A stretch of DNA of 64,000 nucleotides from Mycobacteriales bacterium (lineage in GTDB: Bacteria; Actinomycetota; Actinomycetes; Mycobacteriales; QHCE01): the NCBI GenBank assembly GCA_013362805.1, contig JABFVL010000004.1, positions 74,034 through 138,033 of the forward strand, read 5' to 3'. Made by a program: the position numbers and the translations under genes. Below the pieces are notes generated by a model. That model did no database searches. It was not told the origin of the DNA and saw nothing but the letters and a program-made list of their open reading frames with translations. How positions within the stretch are numbered: the first letter of the stretch is position 1; every line of letters begins with the position of its first letter. Of the stretch, positions 1,600-2,877 are shown piece by piece.

Positions 1600-2877
1600 G
1601 TGAGCAATTACGACTACTACTACGGCAGCGCGATACGAGATACGAACGCTTATAGCCGACCCGATGAATTTACCCGGATACCTGGCGACCCATCAGCGCT
1701 ACGGCGCGCCGCCACGGTGCTTAGCCAACTCGCTGATCGAATCATCACCACGAACGGCACCATTGACACTGGAATGCAAACCGCAGTTAGGGATTGGCAG
1801 AGCAATCGATCTCAAAAATTCGTGGAATCCGCTCTCACATTGACTACAGCCACGCCATCAGCCGAGATGCGACTGCGCGCAGGCGCGAAGGCCCTGAATG
1901 ACTATGCAAGCGCTCTCGAAGAAGCACAACGCATTCTGGCCCAGGAGACGATTCGATACGACCGTCTGGCAACGGAGCGGCGTAATGCCGCTGACTGTTA
2001 CGAGCAACCTCGCAGCTCAGTTACGAATCCTGGCGAAGGCGGCAGCTTCGACACTCGGATGAAACGAATTCAAGAAACCGTAGGAACGGTTCAAGGGGAC
2101 TTGAAAACCAAAGCCCAGCAACTCGCAATAGAGCTTTACGGACAGGCAGCGCAATGCATCGTTGTTGAGCAGATTCCTACACCCAAGCAATTACTTCAAT
2201 ATGTTAAGGATTTCGGAAGTGCTCTTGGAGAGCCAGACGAAGTTCTGCGTGACAAATGGAGCCACGCTAACGCCAGCGCAATAGTTGTTGATAAATACAG
2301 TGACATCAGATCGAACATTAGCGCACTCACCACATGGAAAAAATTGGGAGTTCAAGGGAAAACTGGATCGCACATTCTCAAGAATCTCAAAGTGGACCTG
2401 GATGCAATATTCTTTGACGCCACAAGAACTCGACTCGGGGCATACGAAGAGATCCAACGAAAACTGGAAGAAGAAGCACAAATTGTCAAGCAAACTACCG
2501 CAGAACAGGATGGAAAAAAGCTTCAAATTTTAATAAACGACTTCTCTGATAAACTCCCACGCAATATCCATTGGGCAACGACAAACTTGCCTGTTCCGAT
2601 AGTCGGTAGCTATTTCGACATCATTGACATTCTCGATCCGAATAAGCCGATTACCGCCAAGTTTGTCGCAGGGCTTTCCGTCGCAGGCTCTGCATGTGAG
2701 GTTCTAGCAGCTACCACCCTCGTCACTGGTTCCACCGCTGTTGTTTTAAGTACATTTGGGATTGGCGTCGGGATCGTGGTGCTCGGTTGGTATATCTACG
2801 AGAACCGGGACCCGATCAGACTCTATCTCGATTCCCTTTGGGAACCTGAGCAGTTTAGAGAGAAGTTCTTGCCATGA
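1600..2877 (+). CDS. Putative T7SS-type polymorphic toxin: N-terminal WXG100-like helical secretion domain, C-terminal two-helix membrane hairpin
   Basis: GTG start at 1600 preceded by GGAG. N-terminal motifs: IPGDPSALRRAATVLSQLADRI, DWQSNRSQKF and ALNDYASALEEAQ. The C-terminus has two small-residue-rich hydrophobic helices (FVAGLSVAGSACEVLAATTLV, AVVLSTFGIGVGIVVLGWYIY; about nt 2662-2800). I recognised no enzymatic motif. GC drops sharply inside the gene. Confidence 0.55.
   Translation: MSNYDYYYGSAIRDTNAYSRPDEFTRIPGDPSALRRAATVLSQLADRIITTNGTIDTGMQTAVRDWQSNRSQKFVESALTLTTATPSAEMRLRAGAKALNDYASALEEAQRILAQETIRYDRLATERRNAADCYEQPRSSVTNPGEGGSFDTRMKRIQETVGTVQGDLKTKAQQLAIELYGQAAQCIVVEQIPTPKQLLQYVKDFGSALGEPDEVLRDKWSHANASAIVVDKYSDIRSNISALTTWKKLGVQGKTGSHILKNLKVDLDAIFFDATRTRLGAYEEIQRKLEEEAQIVKQTTAEQDGKKLQILINDFSDKLPRNIHWATTNLPVPIVGSYFDIIDILDPNKPITAKFVAGLSVAGSACEVLAATTLVTGSTAVVLSTFGIGVGIVVLGWYIYENRDPIRLYLDSLWEPEQFREKFLP

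Follow-up and report, generated by a model that had tools for sequence, protein, structure and literature searches.

Does the gene tox425, which stands with a few companions between the housekeeping genes rpsL and rpoC of an actinobacterial contig, encode a membrane-active protein exported by a secretion system of type VII (T7SS), and was it assembled by grafting a new toxin on to an older trafficking domain? The question arises from a stretch of 64,000 nucleotides (nt), here called the window, of a Mycobacteriales bacterium (contig JABFVL010000004.1, positions 74,034 to 138,033), in which an initial annotation, made from the letters alone, had described a toxin candidate with a secretion-type, WXG100-like N-terminus, a C-terminal membrane hairpin and an abrupt fall in G+C content (GC) inside the gene. 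Our reading, to which we give even weight, is that tox425 and its neighbours form a cassette for a T7SS-exported, membrane-active effector; the graft we consider improbable. The class itself is already known, from the Eat/Tap and LXG/Lap systems, and what is new is the payload family (the C-terminal hairpin, toxC) and two partner families, the products of i256 and o264. Coordinates are collected in Table 1.

Table 1. Features of the tox425 cassette in the window
Feature	Position (nt)	Strand	Description	Remarks
s89	1328..1597	+	89-aa small partner (Tap/Lap/EsxB-like), translationally coupled to tox425	TAA 1595-1597, 2 nt before GTG
tox425	1600..2877	+	putative effector gene	open reading frame, 425 aa
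toxN	1660..2205	+	predicted WXG100-like helical trafficking module (residues 21-202)	profiles, helices, recurrence elsewhere
toxM	2206..2586	+	poorly conserved Lys-rich helical middle domain	holds first GC dip
toxC	2593..2844	+	conserved membrane-hairpin module	hydropathy, alignment A6, within-lineage conservation
toxC TM1	2662-2727	+	hydrophobic helix F355-T376
toxC TM2	2737-2799	+	hydrophobic helix A380-Y400
i256	2903..3673	+	256-aa membrane protein, candidate membrane immunity protein	N-terminal hydrophobic hairpin, conserved C-terminal domain
o264	3674..4468	+	264-aa soluble protein, candidate cytoplasmic neutraliser/holdase of hairpin	invariant DEE motif (consensus LTDEEL)
low-GC tract	2101..3200		GC 0.444	two dips, hairpin with normal GC between

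The open reading frame (ORF) of tox425 begins with GTG, preceded 6 nt upstream by GGAG, and ends in TGA; it adjoins the 3' end of s89 and lies in a 3.6-kb island flanked by rpsL (81-455) and rpoC (5711-9598). Both the ORF and the sequence features ascribed to it are real, and all three of the N-terminal motifs quoted for it could be located: IPGDPSALRRAATVLSQLADRI at residues 27-48, DWQSNRSQKF at residues 65-74 and ALNDYASALEEAQ at residues 98-110. The report of no catalytic motif also held, in that searches of Pfam, NCBIfam, PADLOC and PDB sequences recovered no enzyme or catalytic domain in tox425. No Sec signal was detected in the protein. A known defence system was rejected as an identity for tox425, PADLOC having returned no match.

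The N-terminal module, toxN, is supported as a member of the helical class of T7SS substrates, as judged from profile matches and predicted structure. The best N-terminal profile matches of tox425 were T7SS_signal, WXG100, EspB_PE and PPE, and the profile searches returned T7SS substrate families every time, consistently of one clan, with none above threshold: E=1e-3 and 19.5 bits against PF21725 (cut-off 27), E=1.5e-3 and 18.7 bits against TIGR03930 (cut-off 44.85), and 10.4 bits against PF25547, with relatives of tox425 reaching E=5.5e-5 to 1.5e-3 (18.9-23.6 bits) against WXG100_2/WXG100. In the AlphaFold model, helices are predicted at residues 31-66, 69-134 and 145-187 (block-mean predicted local distance difference test (pLDDT) mostly 50-85), and W66-Q-S (nt 1795-1803) falls where the first two of them are predicted to turn back on each other as a hairpin. 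W66 is invariant in a six-sequence N-terminal alignment (A8), and the turn, W-Q-S in tox425, reads W-x-G or W-x-S in relatives. The conserved motif following helix 2 is Y102-x-x-A-L-x-x-A-Q, and the module ends in [ST]P..[IL]...V, whose invariant valine is V202 (nt 2203-2205). A hidden Markov model (HMM) of toxN finds genuine WXG100 genes of Nonomuraea (E=9e-5 to 6e-4), and alignment of toxN with a small WXG100 alignment (hhalign) superposed the W-x-G turn, at E=0.0045 only. Foldseek comparison of the tox425 model gave weak matches that include PPE41 and PPE4, with target-normalised template-modelling scores (TMt) of 0.55-0.66 and nothing below E=1e-3; BAR-domain matches from the same comparison were dismissed as generic long-helix matches. 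An LXG domain was rejected as the identity of toxN, PF04740 matching neither tox425 at E<=1 nor any of seven relatives at E<=0.1. The description of a secretion-type N-terminus therefore stands, on the sub-threshold T7SS-family matches and the W66 turn together with an upstream partner and EssC/WXG100 neighbours in Nonomuraea, both described below.

At the other end of the protein, the two small-residue-rich helices that had been proposed were confirmed, at nt 2662-2799. The toxC module comprises an amphipathic leading segment that carries a conserved D-P, the two hydrophobic helices (TM1 and TM2), an invariant glycine (G396) and a [WYV]-[DE]-[NHK]-x-x-x-I tail; stripes of Gly, Ala, Ser and Thr run along both helices, and the hairpin of tox425 holds G387-x-G389-x-G391 in addition to G396. 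This membrane segment, of glycine-zipper or small-residue type, is the sole C-terminal feature of the protein. Within lineages, toxC is the best-conserved region: in a group of soil sequences its identity is 72.6%, against 61.9% for toxN and 64.1% for toxM, and in Cellulosimicrobium it is 95.2%, against 94.8% for the WXG domain. The least conserved region is toxM (score per residue 0.19-0.29, compared with 0.27-0.99 for toxN). A membrane-acting payload is the natural reading of toxC as far as its sequence allows, because a conserved two-helix membrane hairpin is present without an enzyme domain. To this extent the membrane payload proposed earlier, on the pattern of the Staphylococcus aureus toxin TspA, is supported; homology to TspA was not found.

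Profile comparisons also related the hairpin to phage proteins, in matches that are leads only, prone as they are to composition bias. The tox425 hairpin matched profiles of two-transmembrane (two-TM) holins weakly (phrog_175, E=3.9e-3; PF04550, E=0.032), and a family profile of the hairpin matched chain M ('Gp14') of PDB entry 9m8o (E=0.0025). Hydrophobic segments of tape-measure proteins were matched by the C-termini of two relatives (P0005 against phrog_58, E=4.5e-8; L026 against phrog_28, E=6e-6), and tape-measure matches recurred, consistently and weakly, among the hairpin modules of P0005, L026 and L020 (phrog_58, 28, 4200, 1272 and 1535). A tblastn search found no relative in 50,697 phage records and none in plasmid records, and an origin in a mobile element is accordingly rejected on present evidence.

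The family is rare. A word-index protein search with tox425 recovered only tox425 itself, with the same outcome for o264, and a genome scan of GTDB species representatives with the tox425 query gave no match; HMMER applied to 1.84 billion representative proteins recovered seven relatives at E<=1e-3, and a profile search added five further collinear ones. Two relatives (P0003 and P0005, 422-423 aa, ~24% identity to tox425) are collinear over their full length, P0004 carries an extra N-terminal piece and P0002 is a split copy. Three others, P0006, P0007 and P0008, match only the first ~100-165 residues of tox425 in HMMER, and alignment places the module they have in common at residues ~22-202. 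Behind this toxN-type module lie different C-termini: a glycine-zipper region in P0006, Abhydrolase_8 (E=3e-24) in P0007 and another in P0008. One N-terminal module is thus found with differing C-terminal domains, as in polymorphic toxins, which agrees with the earlier expectation that N-termini would be shared while C-termini differ; the expectation failed among close relatives, where the C-terminus is no more variable than the N-terminus.

The genes around the effector are conserved as a cassette. In relatives it consists of a protein of 89-93 aa, a protein of ~423 aa, a soluble protein of ~265 aa and a membrane protein of 229-276 aa, and HMMs built for each component and run on all fetched loci gave the order s89-toxN-toxM-toxC-o264-i256 at the other loci; in the window, i256 precedes o264. 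L001, which was assembled independently from the same sample and is 100% identical to the window, has the window's order. Cassettes were found in soil metagenomes and, through a scan of genomes with the o264 family as query, in Nonomuraea, Cellulosimicrobium and a metagenome-assembled genome (MAG) of Propionibacteriales. In Cellulosimicrobium the gene upstream of o264 encodes a 334-aa protein with a different, more canonical-looking WXG-type domain (N-terminus …GRWQGGDADQF…; TIGR03930, E=4.4e-4), followed by a Gly/Pro linker and then the same hairpin module. The component HMM search found no s89 in the Cellulosimicrobium cassettes. Some of these Cellulosimicrobium proteins are named 'WXG100 family type VII secretion target' by NCBI and UniRef, while other family members are unnamed or 'hypothetical protein' in public records. 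Since N-termini and C-termini swap between loci in this way, o264 and i256 are seen, from sequence comparison, to travel with the hairpin and s89 with toxN.

A homologue of s89 (89-93 aa) lies directly upstream of the effector wherever a toxN-type N-terminus and upstream DNA are both present, except at L026, where no s89 match was obtained. A small helical partner gene directly upstream is the arrangement of Eat/Tap systems, and binding of the partner to the effector is predicted. The first helix of s89 aligns with the first helix of the effector (hhalign, E=3.8e-4), and in P0004 (locus L007) s89 is fused to the effector N-terminus (s89 HMM, E=1.3e-5), which argues that the two proteins probably work together.

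Downstream, the product of 2903-3673, i256, had been proposed as the immunity partner. It is a two-TM protein conserved in the cassette, with a C-terminal domain carrying the motif IPL..ID..V..H, and its homologues close the cassette at L004, L008, L009, L013, L026, L027 and L028 and, on a weak match, in Cellulosimicrobium; it is, however, only one of two downstream partners. The other, o264, adjoins toxC at every locus, even where the N-terminus differs, and so keeps to the hairpin no less faithfully than i256 does. No match to o264 was found in Pfam, NCBIfam or PDB, and its single-sequence structure model is unusable (pLDDT 31). In Nonomuraea sp. NPDC052265 (L017:9600-10726) the toxin gene has been deleted to a 173-nt remnant, within flanks 95% identical to those of L016, a relative that still bears the toxin, and o264 is intact despite the loss, with a ratio of nonsynonymous to synonymous substitution (dN/dS) of 0.20, in a single case in which most o264 divergence may predate the deletion. 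In this genome o264 has the look of a protective gene left orphaned.

In three Nonomuraea genomes, the cassette is divergently transcribed from a gene for a 1467-aa FtsK/SpoIIIE protein (PF01580, E=2e-58), whose FHA/YscD-like N-terminus makes it EssC-like rather than EccC-like, and a WXG100 gene (PF06013, E=1.7e-11) stands at the same locus. A compact T7SS-like locus can be delimited there (L016:1853-8296 and L018:1868-8285), comprising the ATPase, the WXG100 gene and a gene for a protein of 524-537 aa that has kinase and ricin lectin domains; this last could be an analogue of EssB/YukC-type pseudokinases. At L018, transposase genes (rve_3, DDE_5) occur within a few kb on both sides.

These observations can be joined in a model in which the genes from 1328 to 4468 would be one operon for a T7SS effector of the Eat/Tap (Actinomycetota) or LXG/Lap (Firmicutes) kind. 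The s89 protein would pair with the helices of toxN to give a helical bundle recognised by an EccC/EssC ATPase, and toxM would serve as a helical spacer. The toxC hairpin would insert in the cytoplasmic membrane and dissipate the membrane potential, in a holin-like or glycine-zipper-like manner. Toxicity and secretion, like the parts given to both partner proteins, are inferred here; what the sequences show is the domain layout, a conserved cassette, modules that move independently and, in one genus, linkage to EssC/WXG100. In the producer, o264 would hold the hydrophobic hairpin in the cytoplasm until export, and i256 would protect the membrane from hairpin arriving from outside. So conceived, the cassette would define a payload family, a conserved two-helix membrane hairpin, together with two unannotated partner families, and would offer a compact model, open to test, of the way in which high-GC Gram-positives restrain a hydrophobic membrane-active protein from doing harm until it is exported.

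Several results weigh against this model. The curated cut-offs of PF06013, PF25547, PF21725 and TIGR03930 are reached by neither tox425 nor its relatives; no conserved YxxxD/E export motif was identified in s89 or after helix 2; and the overall quality of the predicted tox425 structure is poor (pLDDT 48), which itself counts on the negative side. In the 64-kb window there is no T7SS ATPase or WXG100 gene, and at most of the homologous loci the neighbours are housekeeping genes, with none for a T7SS inside 10 kb. The Nonomuraea cassettes, those with the secretion neighbourhood, are missing i256. Orphan genes of the S. aureus EsxX system (considered below) are membrane immunity genes, whereas the one orphan here is the soluble o264. 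Finally, the absence of a hypervariable hairpin and the synteny in Cellulosimicrobium would fit a conserved physiological function equally well.

That last point leads to the best-surviving alternative, unlikely in our estimation, in which the protein is indeed a T7SS substrate but not a weapon: the genes would form a set like PE, PPE and EspG (s89 PE-like, toxN PPE-like and o264 an EspG-like chaperone), and the hairpin delivered may serve the producer as a channel, as a secretion aid like EsxE/EsxF or as an envelope factor. The cassette is collinear with its C-terminus the best-conserved part, is syntenic and ~90-95% identical across Cellulosimicrobium species and is accompanied by no arrays of spare immunity genes, all of which suit such a role, as do the weak Foldseek matches of the N-terminus to PPE proteins. 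The resemblance falters at o264. A UniRef name, 'ESX secretion-associated protein EspG', is attached to the Cellulosimicrobium homologue (L020:9977-10792), but it was unconfirmed by any profile: none of 13 o264-family members matched EspG (PF14011) at E<=1 in Pfam/NCBIfam, and the family profile gave no EspG match even at E<=10 against PDB, among whose entries EspG chains are presumably to be found. Moreover, o264 stays with the hairpin when a plain WXG domain replaces toxN and s89, for which reason it fits a hairpin-binding neutraliser better, on sequence evidence, than a PPE-binding chaperone, and it was kept after loss of the toxin in L017. The frameshifted effector of the closest relative (L008) and the patchy distribution of the family also suit an accessory weapon better. 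The more specific proposal that the cassette is a non-mycobacterial counterpart of PE-PPE-EspG delivering a tape-measure-related membrane hairpin is a long shot; if true, it would show the origin of chaperone-assisted export of membrane-active T7SS substrates outside Mycobacterium.

Whether the effector was built by recombination is a separate matter, and hinges on the GC profile. When GC was compared between 450-nt flanks to left and right of each position, the largest difference, 0.127, fell at nt 2104, a value reached at just 0.15% of window positions; the break is not a chance fluctuation, and the abrupt intragenic drop first described by the initial annotation is real. The ten lowest 1-kb windows of the 64 kb all start at 2051-2501 (GC 0.44-0.46, against a mean of 0.584 and standard deviation of 0.029 for 1-kb windows overall). 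GC does not, as had been thought, stay low through the next gene. Instead there are two dips, at 2101-2660 (0.445) and 2801-3200 (0.407), separated by the hairpin at 2661-2800 (0.543), and the last 470 nt of i256 return to 0.524. A shift as large occurs at only one other place in the 64 kb, at 14714-14883 near a gene boundary, where GC rises from ~0.50 (14200-14650) to ~0.64 (14950-15400).

The interpretation offered for the break was a recent recombination, at nt ~2100-2200, of a lower-GC C-terminal toxin and its immunity gene on to a resident N-terminus. We regard this as improbable. The break is abrupt and ranks with the strongest in the window, and falls ~100 nt ahead of the end of the shared N-terminal module at V202; the first 300 nt of i256 (GC at third codon positions, GC3, 0.35) are more AT-rich than amino-acid content predicts (z=-5.2); and i256 and o264 stand in the opposite order to that of all other loci, so that some local rearrangement has occurred. 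Yet the dip spares the very hairpin that would have been imported, along with the 3' part of i256, and the whole island, N-terminus included, is poor in GC3 compared with core genes (0.47-0.67 across 850-4470, against 0.75-0.82 in rpsL, rpoB and rpoC). The same dip is present in the same domain of L008, from another genome of ~59% GC, in which toxM has a GC of 0.43 (0.44 in the window), against 0.57 for toxN and 0.60 for toxC, despite being only 18% identical to the toxM of tox425. Resampling of synonymous codons, drawn from what remained of each cassette, attributed about half of the dip to Lys/Asn/Ile-rich composition, and left a mid-gene residual of z=-2.6 in the window and z=-2.8 in L008. 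Alignment of homologues, which had been suggested as a check for variable C-termini, gave the opposite picture, since all distant full-length homologues keep the three regions, N-terminal, middle and C-terminal, collinear, and the hairpin is the best-conserved part within lineages; this is in essence the outcome that the initial annotation had itself named as refuting its idea. The graft reading is weak because homologues are collinear, the hairpin is best conserved and an independent relative has the same dip. What is likely, given that the AT excess at the 5' end of i256, the one anomaly specific to the window, coincides with the inverted i256/o264 order, is some local rearrangement; the anomaly does not delimit a toxin-plus-immunity unit. 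A sharp intragenic GC break need not be a recombination junction, a caution that applies beyond this locus.

Least credible, and in our view very improbable, is a secretion-independent, holin-like or abortive-infection effector, held inactive by o264, that kills or arrests its own cell: the weak holin matches of the hairpin and tape-measure matches of its relatives, the lack of a nearby T7SS gene at most loci and the position of the island, at a site between rpoC and rpsL that is variable, would accord with it, but PADLOC gave no match, tblastn found no phage or plasmid relative, and it leaves unexplained two WXG100-type N-termini, a dedicated helical partner and the EssC/WXG100 neighbourhood in Nonomuraea.

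Some further features of these loci may be recorded. L008 is the relative closest to tox425 in its N-terminus, and in its effector gene the reading frame shifts immediately ahead of the hairpin module (L008:10840-10940), which leaves ORFs of 292 aa and 116 aa and points to either a pseudogene or an error of assembly. Directly upstream of the L008 cassette lies a conjugation-like block (L008:1751-9633). It encodes a pair of small membrane proteins, an AAA_10 (VirB4-like) ATPase of 1192 aa whose N-terminus is rich in Pro, a polytopic membrane protein of 645 aa and an M23 peptidase, and the cassette there may be cargo of an integrative element. In the window, a 149-aa ORF on the minus strand (mem149, 849-1298) encodes a DUF4190-like membrane protein. 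Its start is probably at 1172 (107 aa, as called on a Logan contig), which would leave a divergent promoter region of 155 nt ahead of s89; it was rejected as a member of the cassette, having no counterpart at other cassette loci. The source of the window is an otherwise unsampled Actinomycetota lineage, placed in that phylum by the similarity of its RpsL and RpoC to mycobacterial proteins; at 90% identity its RpoB and RpoC (window 5711-13140) are singletons among ~15 billion proteins.

How, then, does the proposed effector cassette compare with known systems? The resemblance to two-TM holins and tape-measure proteins is confined to a short two-helix hydrophobic hairpin followed by an aromatic-acidic motif, and to weak matches (phrog_175, PF04550, phrog_58/28/4200 and 9m8o chain M); the remainder of tox425 is unrelated and, as noted, the phage records yielded no tblastn match. 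With PE-PPE-EspG it shares a small helical partner, a longer helical protein with a tryptophan motif at a turn and weak Foldseek matches to PPE, and a soluble protein of ~270 aa encoded alongside. It differs in that no PE, PPE or EspG profile match is significant, and in that o264 follows the hairpin and not the PPE-like module, whereas EspG binds the PPE domain.

The membrane toxins TspA (with its immunity protein TsaI) and TelE (with TipE) have in common with tox425 a helical N-terminus, a C-terminal membrane segment and an adjacent membrane immunity candidate. The gene for TspA lies at a distance from the ess locus (PMC7456083), and TspA is thus a precedent for a T7SS substrate encoded away from its machinery, as may hold at most of the cassette loci. 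TspA is conserved across a species (PMC7456083), but its toxin domain is highly polymorphic and accompanied by tsaI arrays, whereas the hairpin of the cassette is its best-conserved part and no arrays are present. Searches of Pfam and PDB with tox425, o264 and i256 recovered no characterised depolarising toxin and no DUF5085 or TsaI family, homology to TspA, EsxX and TelE having been judged by such matches and not by pairwise sequence comparison.

Eat/Tap loci (EatA-TapA1/A2-EatI) occur across Actinomycetota, are dependent on ESX-4 and encode effectors of 400-1000 aa; the T7SS toxins of this phylum were first shown experimentally in 2026, and ~47% of Eat-class payloads have no assigned function (PMC13444075). 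Features of Eat/Tap immunity proteins reflect the compartment targeted by the toxin, transmembrane helices being taken to indicate an extracytoplasmic target (PMC13444075). The cassette agrees with these loci in phylum, in the elongated helical N-terminus of an effector within the same size range, in having a small helical partner gene directly upstream and in having candidate immunity genes downstream, a likeness of layout. It departs from them in its payload, a two-helix membrane hairpin and not an enzyme, and in the pair of partners conserved downstream, of which one is soluble and the other sits in the membrane.

The closest parallel to that pair is EsxX of S. aureus ST398, a substrate of the T7SSb whose N-terminal domain is bound by Lap partners, whose glycine zipper is sequestered before export by soluble ExiAB, and against which, once secreted, membrane ExiCD gives protection (PMC12258717). 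The two systems belong to different phyla (Firmicutes and Actinomycetota); EsxX has an LXG domain and tox425 has none, ExiAB belong to DUF5085 and o264 has no match, and partners that come in pairs for EsxX are single proteins in the cassette. By analogy, nonetheless, small helical partners, a membrane payload, a soluble shield and membrane protectors would together follow the same logic as that proposed for s89, tox425, o264 and i256.

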